A program made the translations under genes and the position numbers. A DNA stretch of 55,293 nt from an uncultured Candidatus Poseidoniales archaeon (GTDB lineage Archaea > Thermoplasmatota > Poseidoniia > Poseidoniales > Thalassarchaeaceae). Positions within the stretch are counted from its first letter, which is position 1. Every line of letters starts with the position of its first letter. The DNA lies in the NCBI GenBank assembly GCA_964598735.1, contig CAZRCY010000002.1, positions 1 through 55,293 of the forward strand, written 5' to 3'. Below the pieces are notes generated by a model. It was not told where the DNA came from. It did no database searches and worked only from the letters and a program-made list of their open reading frames with translations. This document shows positions 1 to 55,293 of this stretch, one piece after another.

Positions 1-55
1 GGATGAGGTCCTAGTGCGTAGTGCTTCGCAGGTTCAAATCCTGTCCTCTGCACCA
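1..55 (+). tRNA. 3' portion of a tRNA gene, truncated by the window edge, with encoded CCA
   Basis: T-arm GCAGG-TTCAAAT-CCTGT at 28-44. Acceptor 3' strand CCTCTGC at 45-51, discriminator A52, CCA at 53-55. The anticodon cannot be resolved from this fragment. Confidence 0.6.
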
Positions 56-101
56 CTGACGTCTAACCATGAGTTTGAAGGGGTAATGCTCTTCCCACGG
101 A

Positions 102-6129: not shown

Positions 6130-9100
6130 TCACAACCACTGAGCTAGTTCTGAAGCATTCTTGGCTACTCCAACGCCTAATGTCTCTTCTAGTGCTCTAG
6201 CAAGTAATGTAAAATCAGAATCTCGAGTTGCTACAATAACTGAGCCAATATTAGGATATGTAGATGAGGCAAGATGGGTGGCAGTTCTCATTATATCTAA
6301 ATCTCCAGATTCTGGATATATACTATCTCCATTAAATTCTGTTCTTTTATCCGCGGTTCCACGTTGATCTTTGAAATCTGTAACCCTTCTGTATATTTCA
6401 CTGTGAGATTGAATAAACGACTCGACAGCATTCAATTCACCTTCTACAGCATCTAAGAATTCTGATGATGATGGTTCCCAATCATGGAAGGACTCGAGAA
6501 TCTCGTAATGCATTTTCTCTAAAATTTCTGACGTGATTGCCTCACGATACGCATCTAGATTGATGTGTTGATTAGAGCCTGAAAACAGAGAAAGTGCTCG
6601 TTCAGGATCAAATTCACCGGTATCACTGCTACCAATCTTATTCATGAACTCGTGTTTAGCGGTCAAGGGTACATAGGTTCTAATACGCCGTTCAAGACGT
6701 AAATGACGAAGATTATGGTGAAATAAAAGGGACGAATTTGGATTAATAATTCCATTTCGATCCATAGCCATTTTTCTAAGAACTGCAGCGGATAAAGCAT
6801 CTATCAGTAAATTTGTATCAATGACTACCAACGGAGCTAAATCTACTGAACTTAAAATACGACGAGATCGTATTGGGATATTAGACTCGTGTTTTGAATA
6901 CAACGTTTTCATTGATGCAATCAATCTTGCCTTTTCCATACGACCAAGATAATTGCATGCCGATACAGCATGTTCTAGCATCCCTAATGCACGGATAGGA
7001 TCTTCCGATGCTATTTCATTGGCAATACTGAATAATTCCAAAGGTTCTTCTTCATCCTTGATAGCCTCTCGGAATCGATTCTCGATCCTTGTTCTTCCGG
7101 ACTTATTCTTTTCGCGGATGTGATTTAAAGCTGCACGAACACGGCCTACAAATGGTTCCTCAGGAAGATTACGTTTTGTAGGGTAAGTCATCAAAGACTC
7201 AATCAGATCTTCTTTTCTCCTATTCCTTTCTCTTTGGGATGAATATGCCGAATCTTCTTCTTCAGTAGATATATTTGGAACTTTTTCGTCCACGAAATCA
7301 AGTATAGCCTTTCGTGACATATCTCTGGTCTTTGAATTTCTTTTACCTCGATTTTGTTGTTGAATTTCAGCAGAATGAGAGACTTGTAAATACAATTTGA
7401 ACCTTGAGGTAATGGTAGTGGCTAATTCTTCATGACTGCTCAGTAATGCTACTGCTTCAGACCATCCTTGTGCCTGAGCAAAACCAATTAATGATTTACG
7501 ATATAAGCGAGTGGCTATCTCAAAATCACAATGTGGTTCAGCTTGAAAACGTGGGGCCGCTTGTTTGTATAAACGAGCTGCTTCTCTGTAACGTTGCGTA
7601 TTTACTTTAATTGCAGCATTTGCAACAGGAGACCATTCAGAACCGGGTCTATTTTCTTGTAACCACGAAACGAAACTTTGAGATGCAATTTCATGCTCTA
7701 GAAGCATTCGTTGTACTTGATTGAGAAAGATAGCTGAGAAATTATTTTCAATAATCTGATTAAGTAACTCTGATGCATGTTTTTTACGACTACTATCACT
7801 CATCTGAATTTCGTTATTTACCCTATTCATTCTCAGGAGATTCACAATTGCTTGAAATAATGAAGATTCTAAACTGGAAAGATTGGCTGTTGCTATTGAT
7901 TCTTCGAGAGTGTCAATTCTCTTTTCACTAACTAGTCCATCTCCTCCATCCATCAATGCTCGACGTGTTTCACGCAAAACCTCTGAGCCGGACTCTGGTA
8001 ATCGTCCAAGAAGTTCGTCCAGGTTTGCATTGCCCCCATCTAATAAACGAATCAAGGCAGCTTCATGTATGCTCAGGAATTCAGGTATATCTGAAGAAGT
8101 AATCGAGTCGTGAGCTTTGGCTCTTTCGTTCTGAAGCCATTGTATTGTCTCTTCACCAATATTTGCAGGTGCTAATGCACTACAAAGTAGAACTGAATAG
8201 GGTCTGGTAGAGCCATCTACCTTTGAGGAATACAATATCAATGATAAGGAAAAAATGTCTACCTGAGTTGAGAGTATCTCTATGGCTGAATCGAGAACAT
8301 CTGGTGGAAGTACTGTTCTTTCATTTGCAATTAATTTTGAACATGCGAGACGAATTAACATTGGATATTTTGAATCTGTTACAATTTCTGACCAAGTAAT
8401 CAAAGAAAAGTCTGGTGCTTTATCGACTAATCTGGTAATCAATAATTCGTTATCTCCTGCTAACGATGAGGCTTGGATAAATGACTCTTCATCATCAATT
8501 CTTGTTTCTAAAACAAGTTCTGTTGCTGATTCTAAATCCCCAGTTTCTGCGACCTGCTTAACCAGCATCCAACGAAGAGTATCAGATACGGGTTCCCCAT
8601 GTAATTCTAAAAGCATCATTCCTGACTCAATCTTTTTTGAATCGATTTGTCTATCGATAGGAGGGTTTTTCCATGCTTCCAAAAGCATAACAATTGACAG
8701 AGGATCTTTTCCTGTGACTTCTGAACAGTGATCCCAAGACGAACTATCCCCTGACCTAAGCCTAGTTAAGGCAATCATATCGTTTACTGATTCCATTAAT
8801 ATCTTATTTTCACTTTCAATTGACTGGAGAATTTTCAATGATTTTTCTAATTCACCGGCTGCTATCAAAAGATATGCCCCCAGCAACATGTGTTCTGGAA
8901 TTGTGGAGGAAAGAAGTTCTTCGGGGATACTCTTCTGAATTTGATTCATTCTCATCTTTTTGCCTTGAAGTCCTTTAGATAAACGTTGAATTTTGAGAAT
9001 TCCTGCTGAGCCAAGATTTAGTGTTGGGAATTTTTCTAACAAGTCACCAAGCGATGAAACGTCCACTGGGTCGATTCTAGAACCTTTTATCCAACTCTCA

Positions 9101-9600
9101 TCTACTTCTACAGACTGATTTTCAACTTCCAGAGAGGGAAATGCTCCTAATTGAGCGATTAATGGGCATTCTCGAGATGCTATTGACCAAACTGAGTGAA
9201 TGCCGGAAACGCAATCGTTTCTCAATTGGTCGATATTCAAATCAAATTTTGAGTCCCAGTTTTTTGGATCCTTACCCTTGTGAATCAGTAATGTTGCAAG
9301 TTGGAATGCTGGTAAGAAATTTCCAGAAATTACTTGAGGAGGAGAGGGTAGAGAATCCTCAATTCCAGAAAATCCTTTAGCACCTCGTCTTCGACCTCCC
9401 CGTCTTCTAGTTACCTTGACCTTTACTTCCTCATCTGGATTAACTGGTTCCTCTTTTCGAAGAATTGTAATAGCAATTGATTTCCATGGTTTTTCTAATA
9501 AATTGAAGGCATCGTTCCCAATTAGAGTCCTAATTCGTGTATTAGGATCGTCTCCAGAACGGAGGGCGTTTTCGATTGCTTCCTTGAGGCGGTCCTCCAT
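6130..9600 (-). CDS. Large helical-repeat protein with C-terminal split PIN-like nuclease domain
   Basis: ORF of 1171 aa as given in the track. The preferred ATG at 9600 (MEDRLKEAIE) has GGAGGG about 7 nt upstream. The C-terminus carries PIN-type acidic motifs VVIDTNLLIDAL, ESGDLDIMRTA and VIVATRDSDF, separated by a long insert. There is an Arg-rich patch, RRRGGRRRGAKG. The rest looks alpha-helical/TPR-like. Confidence 0.55.
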   Translation of the reverse strand: MEDRLKEAIENALRSGDDPNTRIRTLIGNDAFNLLEKPWKSIAITILRKEEPVNPDEEVKVKVTRRRGGRRRGAKGFSGIEDSLPSPPQVISGNFLPAFQLATLLIHKGKDPKNWDSKFDLNIDQLRNDCVSGIHSVWSIASRECPLIAQLGAFPSLEVENQSVEVDESWIKGSRIDPVDVSSLGDLLEKFPTLNLGSAGILKIQRLSKGLQGKKMRMNQIQKSIPEELLSSTIPEHMLLGAYLLIAAGELEKSLKILQSIESENKILMESVNDMIALTRLRSGDSSSWDHCSEVTGKDPLSIVMLLEAWKNPPIDRQIDSKKIESGMMLLELHGEPVSDTLRWMLVKQVAETGDLESATELVLETRIDDEESFIQASSLAGDNELLITRLVDKAPDFSLITWSEIVTDSKYPMLIRLACSKLIANERTVLPPDVLDSAIEILSTQVDIFSLSLILYSSKVDGSTRPYSVLLCSALAPANIGEETIQWLQNERAKAHDSITSSDIPEFLSIHEAALIRLLDGGNANLDELLGRLPESGSEVLRETRRALMDGGDGLVSEKRIDTLEESIATANLSSLESSLFQAIVNLLRMNRVNNEIQMSDSSRKKHASELLNQIIENNFSAIFLNQVQRMLLEHEIASQSFVSWLQENRPGSEWSPVANAAIKVNTQRYREAARLYKQAAPRFQAEPHCDFEIATRLYRKSLIGFAQAQGWSEAVALLSSHEELATTITSRFKLYLQVSHSAEIQQQNRGKRNSKTRDMSRKAILDFVDEKVPNISTEEEDSAYSSQRERNRRKEDLIESLMTYPTKRNLPEEPFVGRVRAALNHIREKNKSGRTRIENRFREAIKDEEEPLELFSIANEIASEDPIRALGMLEHAVSACNYLGRMEKARLIASMKTLYSKHESNIPIRSRRILSSVDLAPLVVIDTNLLIDALSAAVLRKMAMDRNGIINPNSSLLFHHNLRHLRLERRIRTYVPLTAKHEFMNKIGSSDTGEFDPERALSLFSGSNQHINLDAYREAITSEILEKMHYEILESFHDWEPSSSEFLDAVEGELNAVESFIQSHSEIYRRVTDFKDQRGTADKRTEFNGDSIYPESGDLDIMRTATHLASSTYPNIGSVIVATRDSDFTLLARALEETLGVGVAKNASELAQWL

Positions 9601-9709
9601 CCTTCGCCCTCCAACGAAGGGGTGCGCTCGTCCAGCATACATCAACGATTCGCCATAAAATGAGACATAAGACCCTCAGAATGATGTCCTAAGTCCCCGT
9701 CCAAGGAGT

Positions 9710-14373: not shown

Positions 14374-16635
14374 GTGAGTAGCCCTTCGACATCCGGTCGA
14401 AGGAGGACTACAGCAGGAGGTGGACAAATGGCAAGACGCGCGACTAGCACAATGAAGCAAGCCAGTATCAGCGAATTCTTTGAAAAGAACAAACATTTTC
14501 TAGGATATGATTCGGTACAAAGATCGATAATTACAGCTGTCAAAGAGGCTATCGATAATTCATTAGATGCTTGTGAAGAACATAGAATATTACCTACAAT
14601 TTCAATTGAATTACGACGTATACCAAACAAAACTGATAGGATATTGATGATAGCACAAGATAACGGACCAGGAATTCCTGCTAAGTCAATTGAGAAGGTT
14701 TTTGGTTCACTATTATTTGGGTCTAGGTTTCATACTATCAGACAAACTAGGGGGCAGCAAGGAATTGGTATTACTGGAGTTGTAATGTACAGTCAGTTAA
14801 CGACGGGCAAAACAACACATGTGGTTTCAAAAATTGCAAAAGATGCAACTGCATTGAAAATGGATATTGGCTTAGATACAAAAAAGAATGCTGCAATTGT
14901 CTCTAATCGAGAGAGAATTCATGGATTTGTCGATCATAATGGCTTACCTGTTGAACATGGCCTTCGGATCGAAGCTCCTATGAAAGCGAAATTTCAACGG
15001 GGGAAAAAAAGTGTAGGTCAGTATCTCAGAATGACTGCTATAGTTAATCCTCATGCTACGATACGTTTTCATGCATACAATGAAGAGAATGAATTGATAG
15101 ATAGTTTCGTCTCCGAAAGGGTCACTGACAGGTTGCCACGTCCGGTAAGAGAAATTAAGCCACATCCACATGGAATCGAAATTGGTTCATTGAATAGATT
15201 GCTAAGGGATTCTTCTGAAAGAAACATGAGAGGTTTTTTGCGCCATACATTTTCTGGAATTCCGATGAGAGCGATGAAGGAAATTCTTGAACGGTCTGAT
15301 GTGGATCAAAAAATCGCTCCTGGAAAAGTTACTCCGGAAGCATCTCAACAAATTCTTACATCGTTCAACGAGGTCAGACTGATGCCTCCCCCAACTGATT
15401 GTTTATCTCCAATCGAAGATTTGTTGATCAAAAAGGGACTAGAAAAGGGAGTTGATTCTGCCTTTGTCTCTACACTTACCAGAGCTCCTGGTGTAGCAAA
15501 TGGTAATCCATTTCAAGTTGAGGTCGGACTAATTTATGGAAATTCAGATGTATCTGCAGATGGACCTATCGAAGTCCTAAGATTCGCAAATAGAGTGCCT
15601 CTGATGTATCAACAAGGAGGGTGTCTTCTTACCAAAGGGATAGAATCCGTGAGTTGGAAAGGATATGGATTAGATCAACCAGGAGGTAAGGGGTTGCCCA
15701 AAGGAGCAGCTACGATATTGGTTCATCTTGCCAGCACGAATGTTCAATTTACCTCAGAAGCAAAAGAAGCAGTTGCTGAAAATGAAGTAGTAATGACTGA
15801 AATCCGTAAGGCATTACAGGAAATTGGTAGGCATTTGAAAAACCATAAAAAGAAGAGTGCTCAAAAAGCGAAAACAAGAGAAAAATTCGAATTAGTTAAT
15901 GAAATTCTACCTGCTATCGCCACAAAAGCATCTAGTCTCTTAGGTCGCACAGAGCCTGATTTAAGCCCCATTATTACAAAAATAATGAATGCTGTATTTT
16001 GTGAGGATAATGTTGTATGGGATAAGGAGGCTAAATTACATAGATGTGAGATAAAAATTCACAATTATTCCGCTAGGCCTAGAGCATATTCAATCCTTGC
16101 CCAATATCCTGAAAAAGATGGTGTAGAAATCATTGAGAATGAATTAGGAGGAAAGAGAGAAGTTAAAGGAATATGGTGTTGGAAATTAGAAACTATTCCT
16201 CCGAACGAAGAAGGAGTAATCCGATTTGCTCTGAAAGGCCTAGCACATAATGACTGGAATAGTACGGAGGTTTTCTTCCGTGGCGCTGGCGATATAATCG
16301 GGGCATCCAAAATAGATGAGGAAATTTTGATTGAAATTCAAAAAGAAGAAGAAAGAGCGTTGGAAGTAGCCAAAGAACAGGCTTCGATGATAGCAGAGGA
16401 TGCTATGGAGTCAGATCAAGATAATTCTGGTGACCTTAATGAATTGGAATTAGCAGATGCCATGAAAGGTGTGTTAGGAAATTCAATACCTCAAAAATTA
16501 CCTGAAGAGATTATCGATATACATGACCTAGATAATAGTGGAACATTAGATCAAAGTGAAGTTGAAAAGGCTATTTTACAATCTAACGAACCAAAAGAAT
16601 GGAGATTTGATGAATATGAGGAGAATGATGAATAA
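14374..16635 (+). CDS. top6B: DNA topoisomerase VI subunit B with C-terminal acidic EF-hand-pair extension
   Basis: GHKL/Bergerat motifs: EFFEKNKHFLGYD, AVKEAIDNSLDA, QDNGPGIP and GQQGIG. The track starts at GTG 14374; ATG 14428 (MARRATS) is an alternative start. The tail carries DQDNSGDLNELE and DLDNSGTLDQSE. Confidence 0.9.
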   Translation: MSSPSTSGRRRTTAGGGQMARRATSTMKQASISEFFEKNKHFLGYDSVQRSIITAVKEAIDNSLDACEEHRILPTISIELRRIPNKTDRILMIAQDNGPGIPAKSIEKVFGSLLFGSRFHTIRQTRGQQGIGITGVVMYSQLTTGKTTHVVSKIAKDATALKMDIGLDTKKNAAIVSNRERIHGFVDHNGLPVEHGLRIEAPMKAKFQRGKKSVGQYLRMTAIVNPHATIRFHAYNEENELIDSFVSERVTDRLPRPVREIKPHPHGIEIGSLNRLLRDSSERNMRGFLRHTFSGIPMRAMKEILERSDVDQKIAPGKVTPEASQQILTSFNEVRLMPPPTDCLSPIEDLLIKKGLEKGVDSAFVSTLTRAPGVANGNPFQVEVGLIYGNSDVSADGPIEVLRFANRVPLMYQQGGCLLTKGIESVSWKGYGLDQPGGKGLPKGAATILVHLASTNVQFTSEAKEAVAENEVVMTEIRKALQEIGRHLKNHKKKSAQKAKTREKFELVNEILPAIATKASSLLGRTEPDLSPIITKIMNAVFCEDNVVWDKEAKLHRCEIKIHNYSARPRAYSILAQYPEKDGVEIIENELGGKREVKGIWCWKLETIPPNEEGVIRFALKGLAHNDWNSTEVFFRGAGDIIGASKIDEEILIEIQKEEERALEVAKEQASMIAEDAMESDQDNSGDLNELELADAMKGVLGNSIPQKLPEEIIDIHDLDNSGTLDQSEVEKAILQSNEPKEWRFDEYEENDE

Positions 16636-27354: not shown

Positions 27355-27795
27355 GTGAAGTGGCTGAATAAGGAGTTTTTAGGGAGGCGAAAGAATAGGC
27401 CTAGTTCTCCTGATGAAGATGCAAAAAAGGCGCTTGAACGGGCTCGGAGAGCTGGTAGAATAAATAATCAAAAAAAGAAAAACAATGCGGCTGATGATGA
27501 ACATTGTCTGAAAGAGGCGATGGAAATTGTTGATTCTGGAGTTGGAAAAGAGTATGATACCGGGCAACGAACAGTTCCGTCAAAAATAATCCCCAAAACC
27601 GATCGTTCAGATAGGCCTGGTGAAGATAGAGAATTTATGGATCGGTTCAAAGCAGAAGAGGAGATTCGTAAAACAGGACTAGAATTATCGACACCAAATG
27701 TTGAGAAAATTATCGGAGAGAGAAAGGCAAAGAGAGAGGAATTAGATGAACTGCTTAGTAGTGTTGATGAATTAATTAATGATGATTATGAATAG
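27355..27795 (+). CDS. Highly charged hypothetical protein
   Basis: 146-aa Lys/Glu/Arg/Asp-rich ORF with a GTG start and no recognisable domain. Confidence 0.35.
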   Translation: MKWLNKEFLGRRKNRPSSPDEDAKKALERARRAGRINNQKKKNNAADDEHCLKEAMEIVDSGVGKEYDTGQRTVPSKIIPKTDRSDRPGEDREFMDRFKAEEEIRKTGLELSTPNVEKIIGERKAKREELDELLSSVDELINDDYE

Positions 27796-33041: not shown

Positions 33042-34709
<1,668 letters not shown>

Positions 34710-49547: not shown

Positions 49548-50257
49548 TGTTAGAATCTGATATGCGAGTTGTTGTGCTTACTGGGGCGGGAATAAGTGCA
49601 GAATCAGGGATTAAGACGTTTAGGGCCAATGATGGGATTTGGGAAAACCATAGAATTGAAGATGTCGCTACACCCCTTGCTTGGGAACGCGACCCGCAGT
49701 TAGTCTGGGAGTTTTACCAGAATCGCCGAAGACAATTATTGAATGTTAATCCAAACCCCGCGCATAAGGCATTAGTCTCATTGGAGAGCTACCTACATGA
49801 GTTCTTACTTATTACACAAAACGTTGATGATTTGCATTCACGAGCGGGTTCAAAAAAATTAATTCATATTCATGGAGAGTTGCGTAAATTACGTTGTGAA
49901 ATGTGTGGTGAAATTGTTAATGCGATGGATGGTGAGCATTTACAAGATCAGTATGTAGAATGTGTTCAATGTGAAAATAAAAGATTACGACCACATATTG
50001 TTTGGTTTGGTGAAATGCCATTCAAAATGAATGAGATTTATCATGCTGTAGGGGAATGTGATGTCTTCATCGCTATCGGAACTAGTGGACATGTGTATCC
50101 TGCAGCGGGATTGTTGTCGATTGCCAAGGATGTAGGTGCCCATTGTATAGGAATAAACCTAGATCCTCCAGAGAATGTTGTCTTGTTTGATGAGTTCCAC
50201 CAAGGGCAGGCTGGGGAATTAGTTCCAGTATTGGTCTCTGAATGGATGGGTGGATGA
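49547..50257 (+). CDS. cobB: NAD-dependent protein deacylase, Sir2 family
   Basis: Motifs GAGISAESGIKTFR, TQNVDDLH and GTSG. Zinc Cys pairs CEMCG and CVQCEN. Confidence 0.9.
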   Translation: MLESDMRVVVLTGAGISAESGIKTFRANDGIWENHRIEDVATPLAWERDPQLVWEFYQNRRRQLLNVNPNPAHKALVSLESYLHEFLLITQNVDDLHSRAGSKKLIHIHGELRKLRCEMCGEIVNAMDGEHLQDQYVECVQCENKRLRPHIVWFGEMPFKMNEIYHAVGECDVFIAIGTSGHVYPAAGLLSIAKDVGAHCIGINLDPPENVVLFDEFHQGQAGELVPVLVSEWMGG

Positions 50258-50258
50258 G

Positions 50259-50516
50259 TTATTCTTCTTCATTTTTTGAAGAAAAATCATGAGAATCACG
50301 AAAGTGGGCTATAACTGCTGCTGCATTAGATGATGTGGGGTCAATTTCAGACACTTCCTCTATACTGATTAGTCTGCGTTGCACACGATGGCGACTTCCT
50401 ATAGCTGAATATAATCGATGTCTTGCGTCTACATCATCTGTGGCAATAAGATCGATACAGAAGTCTTGGGTATTCTTTCGAACTGGGTAATTTCCGGTTA
50501 ATCGAAAAGCCTTCAT
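50259..50516 (-). CDS. rplX: 50S ribosomal protein LX (L18Ae/eL20 family)
   Basis: A start at 50516 gives MKAFRLTGNY...RLYSAIGSRHRVQRRLISIEEVSEI, which matches the LX pattern. The longer track ORF (to 50669) would overlap the divergent protease gene. Confidence 0.65.
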   Translation of the reverse strand: MKAFRLTGNYPVRKNTQDFCIDLIATDDVDARHRLYSAIGSRHRVQRRLISIEEVSEIDPTSSNAAAVIAHFRDSHDFSSKNEEE

Positions 50517-50589
50517 CGGACACGCGACCAGTGACCCAAATAAAACACCGACGGTCAATAGGATGGTTGATGATGGATGATGTTTTGGA

Positions 50590-52860
50590 ATGGATATGCG
50601 ACGTGCTGCCCTATTTTTAGTGGTGCTTTTCATTGCACCATTATCTAGTGCATGGCCAATTCCTGACATCCCATTGACAGAGAGTGAATGGATTGTTGTT
50701 GAGAGCGATGGTTGGACTACCGAAGAGTGGAGTGATTTACGGAGTCAAGGACTGGAGCCATTGAGGCAAATTTCTGAAACAGAGATGGTTGTTTGGGGTA
50801 CTTTTGGGGATTTTCAATTGACTGACGAAATCGTTTTACGGGGTAAAATTGCTGATAGTTATCGTGTCATTTTAGAGCCTAGATTGCCTTCAAATGCTCA
50901 GTGGGATATCTTGAATTTATTTGATTTTCAAAATCTAATTCTAGCGGGTAGTATGAGTGCTTATCCAACATCGTTTGAAATTACTGGTGTTGAGCCAGAA
51001 ATCTTTGATTCAATACCTGGTATTTGGTGGGTTGAGCCGATATTGAAAACTGAAAGTAGGAGTAATGTCGCTGCTGAAATCATGCTTGGAATAAATAACG
51101 GTTCTAATCATCTCTCTAATTCTTTCGATGGAAATGGAGTTATCGTAGGAATGGCCGATTCTGGAATTGAATTAGATCATGAGTGTTTTCGACAAAATCA
51201 AACTGCAATTGGTGATATAGGAGTAAATCATCGAAAAATAATCCGGGTAAATACTTCAATTGACGATGGCGATCATCCAGGGCATGAAGATTTTAGGCAC
51301 GGGACTCATTTAGCGGGGGTGTTAATTTGTGACCTCTTTAATGGAATAGAAGGGAGAGGGGTTGCAAATCAATCTCAATTAATATTCCAAGATGTTGTAA
51401 ACGAAACTGGATGGAATGAACCTGAAATGGACTGGTTACTTGCCGAAGACTTGTCATACGGAGCAGTTATTCACTCATACAGTTGGGGGGATGTTACCGA
51501 AGCATATACTTCTCGAAGTTTTCTTCTGGATGCATGGCATCGTGAAATTCCTTGGTCTCTGGCATTTATTGCCCCCGGTAATAATCCAAACAAACTGTAT
51601 GAGCCGGCTAATGCAAGAAACGTAGTTTCAGTTGGGGGGACTATGAAGGACAATGGAACTGATCTTTTTACCGGTTCTTCTCATGGACCTACCGAAGAAG
51701 GATTGCGTGGTAATTTCATTGTTACGCCTGCAGTTGGAATCGTGTCCGCGGCTGCAGACGGTAATCTATCTTCATTCAATAATGACATGAGAAGCAGTAC
51801 AGGAACGAGTAGTTCTACAGCATTAGGAGCCGGGGTATCCGCAGTAATTCAACAGATGGTGCAGGAAGGTTATTTTATTCAAAATGGGAATTTTACTCCT
51901 TCGGGTTCACTGTTGAGAGTGCTGTTAGCCATGTCTGCGCAATCACTAGAAGGAGGAGAACAAGGTGGAGAATATGTAGGTGCTGCTCCAAATGCTATGC
52001 AAGGGTGGGGTAGACCAAATCTAAACAATATAGGTCGGGGAGATGTTTGGATTCATGATTCATATCAAATGAATGAAATTCAAAGATTAGAGATGGTTCA
52101 AGATTGGTTAGAAATTAACGGATCAAGACCATTCGAATCCGTGGAAAAGAAAATGTGGGATGGAAGTGGAGCAAGTGGGCCATTTCTCAAGAATGGGGAG
52201 AGTGTAGATTGGAATTTTACATTAAAAAACAATAGTGATTTTGAAGCGTTTCTTTCATTCGATCAACGTCCATTCGGACAGTTTTCTGATGATCTTAATC
52301 TTGTTGTAACCCTACCTAACGGAACACAATATGAAACAAATGATTCTCTAGAGGGAACTGAAGCATTGAGAATTAACCTAAACAAATTGAATGGAGTTGA
52401 ATGGGTTACTGTGAAAGTTAGGGCAAAGAATGTAGGAATTGGAAATTACACCGAGATGCTTGGAAATGATGGAGACAAGGTTGGTTTTGCCTTGGCTGTA
52501 AGTGGCGTCGAAGGGATTAAGATTAATCCTGTATTAGGTAATGATGAATTATGTTGTACAAATACATCTGAAGAGAATGGTAGTTTACCAGCCACTAACG
52601 TTGGCGATAACCCTGACCCAGTTTTCGAAAAAGGAGAATGGGGAGGAGATAAAGGTGAAATTTACGATAAGACAAGTGATGAGGGAAAAGCTTGGTATTT
52701 GGATAGAAAGTTGTTTTGGAATTATGGTGCTGTTTGCGTTGTCATGATTTTGATTTTAGTTATGGGAGTGGCTGTTACTTCGTATTCATGGGATAAAAAG
52801 AAAAAGAAAAAAGAAATCGACGAGCAGGCGTCAATTTCTGAGAAAATATTAGAAAAATAG
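50590..52860 (+). CDS. Secreted, C-terminally anchored subtilisin-like (S8) serine protease
   Basis: Signal peptide at the N-terminus. Catalytic triad motifs GMADSGIELDH, HGTHLAGV and GTSSSTALGAG. A C-terminal TM is followed by a KKKKKKE tail. Confidence 0.8.
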   Translation: MDMRRAALFLVVLFIAPLSSAWPIPDIPLTESEWIVVESDGWTTEEWSDLRSQGLEPLRQISETEMVVWGTFGDFQLTDEIVLRGKIADSYRVILEPRLPSNAQWDILNLFDFQNLILAGSMSAYPTSFEITGVEPEIFDSIPGIWWVEPILKTESRSNVAAEIMLGINNGSNHLSNSFDGNGVIVGMADSGIELDHECFRQNQTAIGDIGVNHRKIIRVNTSIDDGDHPGHEDFRHGTHLAGVLICDLFNGIEGRGVANQSQLIFQDVVNETGWNEPEMDWLLAEDLSYGAVIHSYSWGDVTEAYTSRSFLLDAWHREIPWSLAFIAPGNNPNKLYEPANARNVVSVGGTMKDNGTDLFTGSSHGPTEEGLRGNFIVTPAVGIVSAAADGNLSSFNNDMRSSTGTSSSTALGAGVSAVIQQMVQEGYFIQNGNFTPSGSLLRVLLAMSAQSLEGGEQGGEYVGAAPNAMQGWGRPNLNNIGRGDVWIHDSYQMNEIQRLEMVQDWLEINGSRPFESVEKKMWDGSGASGPFLKNGESVDWNFTLKNNSDFEAFLSFDQRPFGQFSDDLNLVVTLPNGTQYETNDSLEGTEALRINLNKLNGVEWVTVKVRAKNVGIGNYTEMLGNDGDKVGFALAVSGVEGIKINPVLGNDELCCTNTSEENGSLPATNVGDNPDPVFEKGEWGGDKGEIYDKTSDEGKAWYLDRKLFWNYGAVCVVMILILVMGVAVTSYSWDKKKKKKEIDEQASISEKILEK

Positions 52861-52868
52861 TTTCTAAT

Positions 52869-52876
52869 TTTATAAT
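52869..52876 (+). promoter_or_regulatory. Candidate TATA box for the actin-like operon
   Basis: TTTATAAT lies about 60-70 nt upstream of the ATGs at 52937 and 52946, in an AT-rich gap after the protease gene. Confidence 0.4.
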
Positions 52877-52945
52877 ATTCAATGAGTGCAACATTCATAC
52901 CCATTGACTGATTGCGTTTCAAATGTTAAACCGGAGATGATTCAA

Positions 52946-53950
52946 ATGAGCGAGAGACTGTATATCGGAATAGACCTAGGAACATACCAATCGACCGTAA
53001 TGTCTTCAGAAGGCGTACAAACAACAATAGAGACTGTTGTTGGGCGACCAAAAGACCCAGTAGCACGCAATTTCTTGGGTAGAGATGTTGTGTTTGGTGC
53101 AGAAGCTATCAAGCATAGACTAGCATGTAATTTATTCCGTCCTTTGGAACATGGCGTCGCACAAGATGATGAAGATAATTTGAGTGCCGCAAAAGCTTTC
53201 GTGACTCACCTAATTGAAAACTGTGATCCTGAAGAATTCGATGAGGTTCTTGGAGTAATTTGTAGCCCCTCTCATATCAGTTTCACAGATAAGACAAATT
53301 TGGTTTCAATTCTAAGAGGTCTTGTGAATGGAATTATGGTTGTCTCTGAACCTTTTGCAGTTGCATTCGGACTAGATCAAATTGCTGGAAGTATTGTTGT
53401 AGATATTGGAGCGGGTACAACAGATATTGCGCGCATTTACGGAACATTCCCTACAGATGATGACCAATTAACCATTGAAGAGGCGGGTGACTGGCTCGAT
53501 CATCGATTGATGGAACTTATTCAGAAGAAATATGCTGGTGCGCAATTAACTCAATCAATGGTACGAAGATGGAAGGAAGAAGGGTCCCATGTAGGCGACA
53601 CTGGAAATGAATTTATGGTAGACCTGTCTGTCGAAGGTAAAAAACAACATGTCGACATCGGTGATTTGATTCGTATTGCTTGTAATGATTTAGTTCCACA
53701 CCTTGTCGAGGGACTAAAAAAGATAGTTGCGGGTGCTGATCCAGAATACCAATCCGCTCTTAGAAACAATATCATTCTCGCTGGTGGTGGATCTTTAATT
53801 GAAGGATTGGCAGATCGTGTTGCTCAGCAATTAGCTGATATTGGTGACGTAACTGTGTGGTGCGCAGAAGATCCAGTGGTCAGAGTTGCAGACGGGGCAT
53901 TAAAACTAGCTTCAGCGATGCCAGATGAAATGTACACAGCAATCGAATGA
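52946..53950 (+). CDS. Actin-fold ATPase of the bacterial-actin MreB/MamK family (MamK-like signature)
   Basis: Phosphate-1 motif LYIGIDLGT, phosphate-2 motif VVDIGAGTTDI and adenosine motif ILAGGGS. VVSEPFAVAFGLD and GAGTTD look MamK-like rather than like MreB (EEP, GGGTT). GGAG at 52933-52936 fits the ATG at 52946. The track GTG at 52886 lies too close to the TATA box. Confidence 0.75.
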   Translation: MSERLYIGIDLGTYQSTVMSSEGVQTTIETVVGRPKDPVARNFLGRDVVFGAEAIKHRLACNLFRPLEHGVAQDDEDNLSAAKAFVTHLIENCDPEEFDEVLGVICSPSHISFTDKTNLVSILRGLVNGIMVVSEPFAVAFGLDQIAGSIVVDIGAGTTDIARIYGTFPTDDDQLTIEEAGDWLDHRLMELIQKKYAGAQLTQSMVRRWKEEGSHVGDTGNEFMVDLSVEGKKQHVDIGDLIRIACNDLVPHLVEGLKKIVAGADPEYQSALRNNIILAGGGSLIEGLADRVAQQLADIGDVTVWCAEDPVVRVADGALKLASAMPDEMYTAIE

Positions 53951-53968
53951 TGGCTTTTCGTTTAGAGG

Positions 53969-55195
53969 TTGAAATTAGGCCTCAAAGGGGCCACCACACA
54001 CCGAAGGTTCAAGAATGCGGTTTCAACGATGCTACCTGTTGACATGACTGCCCAAGATGCACCTGTGCCCGAAGGAGCCGATAGAGAAGCATTGGCTAGT
54101 ATGTTGAATAGCTATGCTTCAGACCAATTAATCCAAGAAGTCTTGAGTGCATGGGAGAACCTGTCAATCATCAACCAAGAAGTTGCTGGTCTAAGGCAAC
54201 AAAACCGGGTTTTGGAATTAGATTTGAAAGAAAGAGAAGATATCGGTTCACCAGATCGTGCGCGATTAATTCGATTGGAAGAAGACTTGAGAGATAGGGA
54301 GGCTCAAATTATTCACCTTGAAAGATTGGTAGATGATGGTCGTGCAGAAATTGAGGAAATTTCTGTTGGTAGTGGTGCGATGAAAGTTGACTCGCTTGAA
54401 AGAGAAAATTCTGCCATGTCCGCTGAATTAGATGAGAAAACCGCATTGTTAGTGGAGATGGAAGAAAAAGTCGCTACATTAGTAGATGCATTAGAAAAGG
54501 CAGCAGAGGCAGGATTGACGTCTGTAACTGCTGAAGAGGTTAGAGCCTTAAATCAAGAATTAGAGGGAGCCCACAAAGAACTTCAAAGTGAGAAAATTGA
54601 GAAAGACTCGGTGATGGAGGAGAGGGATCGATTGAGAGAACTTGTTGAGCAAGTTAGGAATCATTTGGAGATTCGAGATGATCGGATTCGAGAATTGGAG
54701 GAGCAATTGCAGCGAGTAATGTCTGGTCCCCGAAGTGTATCTGCTGAACATGAATATCTAACTGAACAGATTGAAGAATTGAAGAGACGACTAGTAGATC
54801 GAAATAGAGAATATGAAGCTCTGAGAAGAAGAGAGAGAAGATTACATCGAGAGGTATTCGACAGAGATGAAAGAATTGCTCAACTTCAGTTAACCATGCA
54901 AGACATCGAGGCGGGCCTTTCAGATCGTACTGCAGAATTGAAGGCTCTAGAGGAGAGTCACGACCGACTAGTAGGAGAAATGGGTGCTTTAAGGCGTTCA
55001 GAAAGTACCAGAGAAGTTGTCAATAAAGCATTCAGAGATTCGTTGAATGTTGTTCGTGCTCATGAACAGGTTCAAGCCAGAAGAGAGGCGGCCGGTCTAC
55101 CTACTGGATTAGAACCAATTGAAGGACCGGGGGGAGATGTTCCATCTCCAGGTGGAAGTGCTCCACCCGCTCTAAGAGATATTGATGATGAATGA
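53969..55195 (+). CDS. Long coiled-coil protein (408 aa) with Pro/Gly-rich acidic tail
   Basis: Glu/Arg/Leu-rich heptad-like sequence runs through most of the protein. The tail is GLPTGLEPIEGPGGDVPSPGGSAPP. The start is uncertain: TTG 53969, ATG 54029 or ATG 54044. The gene is tightly linked to the actin-like gene. Confidence 0.6.
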   Translation: MKLGLKGATTHRRFKNAVSTMLPVDMTAQDAPVPEGADREALASMLNSYASDQLIQEVLSAWENLSIINQEVAGLRQQNRVLELDLKEREDIGSPDRARLIRLEEDLRDREAQIIHLERLVDDGRAEIEEISVGSGAMKVDSLERENSAMSAELDEKTALLVEMEEKVATLVDALEKAAEAGLTSVTAEEVRALNQELEGAHKELQSEKIEKDSVMEERDRLRELVEQVRNHLEIRDDRIRELEEQLQRVMSGPRSVSAEHEYLTEQIEELKRRLVDRNREYEALRRRERRLHREVFDRDERIAQLQLTMQDIEAGLSDRTAELKALEESHDRLVGEMGALRRSESTREVVNKAFRDSLNVVRAHEQVQARREAAGLPTGLEPIEGPGGDVPSPGGSAPPALRDIDDE

Positions 55196-55209
55196 TTGGG
55201 GGATTGAAA

Positions 55210-55260
55210 ATGAATAACTGCAACTGTTGTAATGATTGTTCAAATTGTGATGATTGTTGA
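55210..55260 (+). CDS. Candidate 16-aa Cys-rich micropeptide MNNCNCCNDCSNCDDC
   Basis: An ATG lies 14 nt after the coiled-coil stop, with the SD-like GGGGGA at 55198-55203. Six Cys are spaced by Asn/Asp. The ORF is too short for the track, and an overlapping alternative frame exists. Confidence 0.25.
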   Translation: MNNCNCCNDCSNCDDC

Positions 55261-55293
55261 ATGGATTTGAAAGATAATGAATGAAATTATCTT

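Follow-up and report, generated by a model that had tools for sequence, protein, structure and literature searches.

MamK, the magnetosome actin of magnetotactic bacteria, is the best-matching characterized family for an actin-like ATPase that is encoded, together with an alpha-helical rod protein, near the end of a stretch of DNA from an uncultured Candidatus Poseidoniales archaeon of the Thalassarchaeaceae. The stretch, called the window here, comprises 55,293 nucleotides (nt) and is positions 1 to 55,293, forward strand, of contig CAZRCY010000002.1 in GenBank assembly GCA_964598735.1. The actin-rod gene pair is chromosomal and is conserved across most of the Poseidoniales sampled. It is probably an undescribed cytoskeletal system, currently labeled "MreB" in databases. 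On balance we favor the reading, drawn from sequence and from analogy, that a filament-forming actin of the MamK superfamily is paired with a rod partner that would dimerize and bind the filaments.

In Thermoproteota, crenactin is encoded in the 'arcade' cluster beside lineage-specific arcadins, among them a coiled-coil protein and one that attaches to the filament by a short terminal peptide. The crenactin subfamily is close to eukaryotic actin and is distinct from the window actin. An archaeal actin beside its partners is common to both loci but, as far as we are aware, the arcadins are unrelated in sequence to the rod protein. Salactin and volactin, the haloarchaeal actins, are also archaeal actin homologues, and their Pfam models match the window actin weakly (PF25229, salactin, 34 bits; PF25216, volactin, 31 bits). 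They differ in lineage, which is Methanotecta, and in having no conserved rod-protein neighbor.

MamK and the window actin have the same length, the same five actin-fold motifs, and equivalent residues at E143 and D161. They differ in that the window actin scores 362 against a MamK cut-off of 400, is ~37% identical, falls in a separate clade from Magnetospirillum MamK, and has an archaeal host. No magnetosome genes were found among the genes scanned near the actin, a scan that some small open reading frames (ORFs) fell outside. The partner here is the new rod protein and not MamJ or MamY. In Desulfovibrio magneticus RS-1, the coiled-coil proteins Mad20, Mad23, Mad25 and Mad26 work with MamK and Mad28 and organize cargo (PMC12748827). 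The logic of a MamK-type actin plus a dedicated coiled-coil protein is shared with the Mad network, but the interaction is demonstrated there and inferred here, and there is no magnetosome setting here. The Mad and rod proteins are likened by role and not by sequence comparison, the rod having no credible Pfam, NCBIfam or PDB match.

BeeR is a three-stranded tubular MamK relative of Verrucomicrobiota (PDB 8r2n; PMC11929497). Like the window actin it is a MamK-related actin from a non-magnetotactic organism, and its model is the second best here (213 bits). It differs in its 530-bit cut-off, its branch in the distance tree, and its defining disordered N-terminal domain, which is missing from the window actin. 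The first-pass annotation, made from the sequence alone, had not recognized the locus as a described system. This agrees with the literature, in which we found no report that connects Poseidoniales or Marine Group II (MGII) with MamK or an actin, subscription journals being outside our coverage.

The actin-like ATPase and its relatives

The first-pass annotation listed an actin gene, a coiled-coil gene and a Cys-rich micro-ORF, and likened the 334-amino acid (aa) actin to MamK rather than to MreB, crenactin or Ta0583. The three ORFs are found at the coordinates it gave, and the actin-fold motifs YIGIDLGT, VVSEPF, VVDIGAGTTD and ILAGGGS are all present. The phosphate-1 motif begins 6 residues after the N-terminus. 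The assignment to the MamK type holds up, since profile hidden Markov model (HMM) searches, PDB searches and a neighbor-joining (NJ) tree agree.

The NCBIfam MamK model (NF040964) gave the highest score, 362.2 bits (E 2e-108), which is below its curated cut-off of 400. The BeeR model (NF053558) followed with 212.9 bits, also short of its cut-off of 530, and the salactin model gave 41.8 bits against 400. Among PDB sequences the best matches were Magnetospirillum MamK structures (5jyg, 5ljv and 5ljw), with residues 3-330 aligned to 5jyg at E 4.8e-70, and BeeR 8r2n (E 1.1e-38). MreB matched at E 2e-15 or weaker and eukaryotic actins at 1e-7 or weaker, and no crenactin structure was among the 60 PDB matches listed. 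Alignment to 5jyg identifies E135 and D153 as the counterparts of the MamK catalytic residues E143 and D161. The window actin is 37% identical to MamK, 33% to BeeR and 28% to solved MreB.

Many homologues are named MreB or 'rod shape-determining protein' by NCBI and JGI, others 'hypothetical', and the window actin does pass the Pfam MreB_Mbl model (85.6 vs a gathering score of 27). That model is broad and also covers MamK. An ordinary MreB is nevertheless hardly credible. The specific MreB models score far below their cut-offs (TIGR00904, 70.9 vs 365.75; PRK13927, 80 vs 293), the MamK and BeeR models exceed their scores 3- to 5-fold, and the identity to solved MreB is lower than that to MamK. 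No mreC, mreD or rodZ gene was found in the window or in the related loci examined, and we know of no peptidoglycan elongasome in Poseidoniales. Model scores, PDB matches and the NJ tree together effectively refute an ordinary MreB. The surroundings are likewise neither mreBCD nor ParMRC in the window and the related loci examined.

The tree was calculated by NJ from the distances of 90 sequences, rooted on solved MreB with 100 bootstraps, and is rough compared with a maximum likelihood tree. MGII actins were monophyletic in 100/100 bootstraps and joined the clade of Magnetospirillum AMB-1 MamK in 0/100. The 334-aa protein thus falls outside MreB in an MGII clade of its own, as the phylogeny called for in the first-pass annotation was meant to decide, and that clade has no firm sister group. 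Two other Poseidoniales actins scored 324-339 bits with the NCBIfam MamK model, also below the cut-off, compared with 508 bits for an AMB-1 MamK relative and 425 for Nitrospira MamK. Scores below the cut-off are consistent with the public labels 'rod shape-determining protein' and 'hypothetical'. As membership in strict MamK fails on the curated score, the tree position and the context, the best description of the protein is a distinct subfamily, specific to Poseidoniales, within the MamK/BeeR radiation.

The actin is under strong purifying selection. Comparison with two close loci (L005 and L006) gave dS of 0.8-1.6 and dN of 0.008-0.017, for a dN/dS of ~0.01: the protein has remained ~99% identical even though its synonymous sites are nearly saturated.

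Among 1.84 billion cluster representatives, an exhaustive HMMER search identified 1218 relatives of the actin. Identity drops from the Poseidoniales cluster (71%) to 36-44% in the next relatives. The identified non-Poseidoniales relatives in that range are a KSB1 bacterium, a Nitrospira 'MamK family' protein, and ANME-2 archaea. In 14 proteins an N-terminal extension of ~200-900 residues is fused to the actin domain, the KSB1 protein being the sole named member. Outside magnetotactic bacteria, the association of MamK-like actins with coiled-coil or extended partners, and with genes of cell organization, is a recurrent one.

Three of these distant loci were inspected individually. In the KSB1 bacterium (L043, 5001-11322) the MamK-like domain carries a 376-aa N-terminal extension. 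Downstream of the fusion gene lie a second actin-like gene, three Roadblock/LC7 genes and a gene for a Ras/Arf-like GTPase, a cluster that looks like a polarity-type module. The ANME-2 contig (L040, 6001-12925) encodes a MamK-like actin 36% identical to the window actin and, 25 nt after it, a 1940-aa protein that is nearly all repetitive coiled coil in units of ~100 aa and has no Pfam match. P0245 (L039, 1-5478), 43% identical to the window actin and among the closest non-Poseidoniales relatives, sits in a chemotaxis cluster with the order cheA, cheC, cheD, actin, a 291-aa protein and cheC. P0245 neighbors the MGII clade in the NJ tree, a grouping found in only 19/100 bootstraps.

The rod protein and the conserved gene pair

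The second gene of the pair was listed mechanically as an ORF of 408 aa with a TTG start (53969-55195), which would leave 18 nt after the actin gene as the first-pass annotation stated. Homologue alignments agree only from about 'MT(A/T)QD' onward and homologues are mostly 383-388 aa in length, which makes the ATG at 54044 (383 aa) or that at 54029 the likely start. With either, the spacer between the two genes is 78-93 nt, and the 18-nt gap is not retained.

The rod family has 1360 homologues, the best 120 of which are 54-93% identical and of near-constant length, mostly 383-388 aa. An alignment of 49 members, 54-93% identical, contains >100 invariant columns. These are concentrated in the blocks AxEAGLTSxxAEEVR (residues 153-167) and RVMxGPRSxSAEHxYLxEQxEELKRRLxxRNREYEAxRRRERRLHRxVFxRDE (residues 224-276, with an Arg-rich part at 241-275) and the C-terminal PGGxAPPALRDID. 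dN/dS is ~0.03 at dS 1.2-1.7, again strong purifying selection. Together with the 1360 homologues and the MamK E-value of the actin, such low ratios lie well outside what chance would give. The AlphaFold2 model made from the family alignment has a mean predicted local distance difference test (pLDDT) score of 82 and contains helices at 26-156, 163-226 and 232-350. The helix breaks coincide with the invariant AGLTS and GPRS motifs, and the C-terminal Pro/Gly tail is disordered. The 'nearly uninterrupted' coiled coil of the first-pass annotation is borne out for the long helices but not for their continuity, which is broken by two invariant hinges and ends in the disordered tail. Rather than a generic coiled coil, the model shows a segmented rod of helices that carries specific conserved surfaces.

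No credible Pfam or NCBIfam family was found for the rod, the only matches being coiled-coil matches of 17-29 bits. A Foldseek search of the model against the PDB returned nothing (best E 7.9), and a profile search of PDB sequences gave 0 matches. With hhalign, no homology was detectable between the rod family and either the N-terminal extension of the KSB1 fusion (probability 0.2%) or the N-terminus of the giant ANME-2 coiled-coil protein (0.3%). By these sequence comparisons the rod protein is a new, previously unnamed family. JGI names it 'chromosome segregation ATPase', a label that stems from coiled-coil similarity only. An SMC identity was rejected: scores were 20-29 bits against cut-offs of 567-729, there is no Walker A/B head domain, and the model is helical apart from termini and hinges.

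That label and the Arg-rich block (KRRL..RNREYEA.RRRERRLHR) would both suit a rod that acts as a DNA-binding adaptor in DNA or chromosome segregation of the ParM, AlfA or salactin type, with actin filaments that push or pull the DNA. Salactin reportedly affects DNA partitioning. The actin also has a weak match to a PHROG 'partition protein' (4.7e-07). Salactin, for which MamK is reported as the closest subfamily (PMC10746226), is the nearest characterized archaeal actin. Yet the salactin model gives only 41.8 bits here, and the rod has no ATPase or known DNA-binding domain and is strongly acidic, with 89 D+E vs 55 K+R.

The genomic setting bears on segregation as well. The window encodes topoisomerase VI A and B, a thermosome subunit, UvrA, FGAM synthase, FtsY, prefoldin and ribosomal protein LX (L18Ae), and the metagenome-assembled genomes behind the close homologues of actin and rod are named Candidatus Poseidoniales, Thalassarchaeaceae or 'marine group II/III euryarchaeote'. 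G+C is 0.43 in the actin gene and 0.44 in the rod gene, near the window mean of 0.41. No iterons, inverted repeats, parR/parC-like or centromere-like repeats were found around the genes (50200-55293). Searches of PHROGs and PADLOC showed no viral or defense signature, the matches being weak ones to coiled coils or generic actins. Together, the housekeeping genes, the G+C, and the absence of repeats and of viral or defense signals point to an ordinary archaeal chromosomal region. Membership in a plasmid partition system of the ParM/ParR/parC type was rejected on the missing iterons, the chromosomal housekeeping setting and the G+C. A segregation role in the wider sense is, in our view, quite unlikely, given the lack of centromere-like repeats near the genes and their location on a chromosome rather than a plasmid.

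Related loci were scored for the order S8 (subtilase) peptidase, actin, rod gene on one strand. Seven loci with actins 92-99% identical to that of the window have this order (L001, L005-L009 and L015), as do L002-L004 (actin 78%, rod protein 65%), L018-L023 (rod protein 55-58%), and L036-L038 (actin 71-72%, rod protein 46% over the full length). At the paired loci identity thus ranges from 71-99% for the actins and 46-95% for the rod proteins. The pair is kept where its flanks have changed. In the window clade an insertion of ~2 kb, made up of small genes, separates the rod gene from PcrB, and Sir2 and NTP-transferase genes lie upstream of the pair; in L037 an ABC transporter and a rhodopsin are found downstream.

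The most constant neighbor of the actin is the membrane-anchored S8 peptidase, which the first-pass annotation omitted. In 20/20 related loci with upstream sequence, among them loci without the rod gene, it immediately precedes the actin gene on the same strand, and in L021 the two overlap by 11 nt at the actin start. The peptidase varies in length among relatives (~750-1340 aa); a transmembrane helix at the C-terminus and a short, charged cytoplasmic tail are always present. A functional link to the actin is unproven. Acidic residues often end the cytoplasmic tail of the peptidase, and likewise the tail of the rod protein.

Conserved upstream motifs of a related kind are common to the actin and rod genes. 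The first-pass annotation placed all three genes behind a single TATA-like element, TTTATAATA (~52868). Conservation of this element is poor, L008 and L009 lacking it altogether, and AACATTCATACC is the better promoter candidate for the actin gene. The rod gene is preceded by AAGGTTCAAG, which is identical in 12/12 divergent loci even where the remaining spacer is unalignable and has no other exact copy in the 55-kb window. It is probably the rod gene's own promoter or regulatory element. With separate conserved motifs at the two genes one shared promoter is unlikely, and the claim of a single element is not supported. Read-through transcription from the actin into the rod gene is possible.

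The sequence NNTTCAWR occurs at -70 to -20 of 8/43 window genes, including the thermosome gene, compared with 6% of random 50-nt windows, and may represent the TATA-like promoter element of this Poseidoniales lineage. TTCAWR-centered motifs were seen 30-55 nt before start codons, also upstream of 33042-34700(-), 27355-27795(+) and 14374-16635(+).

Several observations weigh against a functional actin-rod pair. Five loci (L010-L014, actin 64-66%) keep the S8 peptidase and the actin but have an MsrA-like gene, assigned by reading a sequence motif, in the rod position. No rod homologue is present within these 13-kb loci, and therefore the partner is dispensable there or encoded elsewhere. Gene order in this region is broadly collinear across Poseidoniales (LX, S8 peptidase, actin, rod, PcrB), so adjacency is weaker as functional evidence. 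The invariant element before the rod gene may allow independent expression. AlphaFold2 performed poorly on the actin (pLDDT 55.7, from an alignment of 31 sequences with 70-78% identity), and that model was not used for a fold search. Polymerization and the interaction of actin with rod are themselves inferred, from sequence and by analogy.

An alternative reading is that of two independent genes that are neighbors only because gene order is conserved in streamlined genomes, with the rod serving in, e.g., division or the envelope, unrelated to the actin. Its own upstream motif together with the 78-93 nt spacer, the actins of L010-L014 that lack an adjoining rod gene, and a collinear order that in several lineages runs through PcrB on to UvrA all speak for independence. 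We nevertheless consider it unlikely, because in the window clade the two genes have remained adjacent despite changes on both sides, as they have in L037 despite a changed downstream flank, and because the actin/coiled-coil pairing recurs in the ANME-2 relative.

Accessory and neighboring genes

The features of the locus are collected in the table. GGAGATGAT, the Shine-Dalgarno-like sequence before the actin gene, presumably acts as its ribosome-binding site.

Features at the 3' end of the window, with coordinates in window positions
Feature	Position	Strand	Remarks
Membrane-anchored S8 (subtilase) peptidase	50590..52860	+	Pfam Peptidase_S8, 4.5e-24
Promoter-like motif AACATTCATACC before actin gene	52890..52901	+	Candidate; in 11 aligned loci as AAC[AC]TTCA[TA]A
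Shine-Dalgarno-like GGAGATGAT	52933..52941	+	4 nt before actin ATG; identical in six closest loci
Actin-like ATPase, 334 aa	52946..53950	+	MamK superfamily, Poseidoniales-specific subfamily (HMM, PDB, NJ tree, dN/dS)
Invariant AAGGTTCAAG before rod gene	54004..54013	+	30 nt upstream of rod ATG
Alpha-helical rod protein, 383 aa	54044..55195	+	Alternative starts ATG 54029, TTG 53969; presumed filament partner
16-codon Cys-rich micro-ORF, MNNCNCCNDCSNCDDC	55210..55260	+	Accessory, part of clade only
Start of membrane microprotein, first 17 nt	55277..55293	+	Truncated by window end; full ORF in 15 related loci

The micro-ORF begins 14 nt after the rod stop and leaves 33 nt to the end of the window, as the first-pass annotation described. 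That annotation grouped it with the actin and coiled-coil genes as a triad. The rod neighbor is kept across the Poseidoniales loci sampled except in L010-L014, but the micro-ORF is intact in only 3/8 close loci (the window, L006 and L008), which were chosen without reference to it. It is absent through a clean ~70-nt indel in L001, L005, L007, L009 and L015, and is absent from all more distant loci examined. A metagenome scan with the pattern M-N-x-C-x-C-C-x2-C-x2-C-x2-C-stop gave 12 matches. 9/12 were the micro-ORF, each directly after the stop of a rod gene; the remaining three to four (L027-L030) were poly-Cys low-complexity repeats and were discarded.

Seven variants of the peptide are described by MN[NEK]C[NKD]CC[ND][DN]C[SAVL]NCD[DN]C. 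Cys codons vary synonymously only (TGT/TGC at codons 4, 13 and 16) and other positions swap small polar residues; Cys conservation is partly imposed by the search pattern for the metagenome copies, and the unbiased copies show the same. A G-rich Shine-Dalgarno-like run precedes the micro-ORF. From its sequence, the micro-ORF looks like a real coding element that is optional and outside the core, and its CxCCxxCxxCxxC pattern, of a kind typical for peptides that bind metals, suggests that the peptide is probably metal-binding. An 18-nt direct repeat lies inside it (55227-55261, TTGTAATGATTGTTCAA / TTGTGATGATTGTTGAA), and it appears to have grown by duplication of a C-x-D-C unit.

The first-pass annotation allowed for further components beyond the window end, and related loci supply one, a single-pass transmembrane microprotein of 36-39 aa with the consensus ME-E-I..CC..AF.IA.SKGW[YF]KEAL.IL. 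It directly follows the micro-ORF, or the rod gene where the micro-ORF is missing, and is limited to the sub-clade of the window. In distant loci PcrB follows the rod gene, immediately or past one small ORF. Past the microprotein, the window clade encodes one membrane protein of ~117-130 aa or two paralogous ones (MEEGPKPxILTENPKIPIQ...), located at about 8400-8800 in L005-L007 and L015 and at 2952-3308 in L001. They are followed by a GATase-like gene and then PcrB, and the ~2-kb block is an insertion relative to other Poseidoniales.

Two observations concern the far end of the window. The 1171-aa protein encoded at 6130-9645 (-) has no Pfam family at E 1e-5 or better, and its C-terminus is PIN-like by eye (VVIDTNLLIDAL ... 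RDSDF). Window positions 1-60 resemble the 3' half of a tRNA (GGTTCAAATCC ... CCA) truncated by the window start. ARAGORN found no complete tRNA in the window.

Proposed function and significance

In the reading that we favor, the 334-aa actin would polymerize with ATP into filaments. This is expected because its nucleotide-binding and catalytic residues are retained and because MamK and BeeR behave in this way. The 383-aa rod would dimerize, bind the filament through an invariant surface or a terminal peptide (PPALRDID), and bundle filaments or tether them to cargo or membrane. This role is proposed by analogy, because coiled-coil or adaptor proteins serve MamK in magnetotactic bacteria and arcadins serve crenactin. 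The analogy supports the pairing of actin with rod through three examples: the ANME-2 actin with its 1940-aa coiled coil, the KSB1 fusions, and the Mad proteins with MamK. Our preferred guess for the role is envelope or membrane organization, because an anchored S8 peptidase is constant upstream and a small membrane protein lies downstream in this clade.

A more far-reaching version, which we regard as doubtful, would be a dedicated Poseidoniales cytoskeleton in which MamK-type filaments and a co-evolving rod position envelope or membrane components, such as the adjacent anchored S8 peptidase or the small membrane protein, or an intracellular structure. Actin/coiled-coil pairing, seen in ANME-2 as well, would in that case be an ancient design that is widespread in archaea, with the optional Cys peptide hinting at metals.

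MGII, among the most abundant archaea of the surface ocean, are uncultured, and next to nothing is known of their cell biology. The actin-rod pair is among their most conserved loci and is publicly mislabeled as MreB. What is new here is an actin subfamily and a partner family in an ecologically dominant, uncultured archaeal order. If the pair is truly a filament plus its partner, it would bring a further lineage of archaea into the MamK radiation, in addition to the ANME-2 homologues, which are also labeled 'rod shape-determining protein', and would add a new compact filament-binding rod protein testable in vitro and in heterologous hosts. It would also be the first handle on intracellular organization in MGII.

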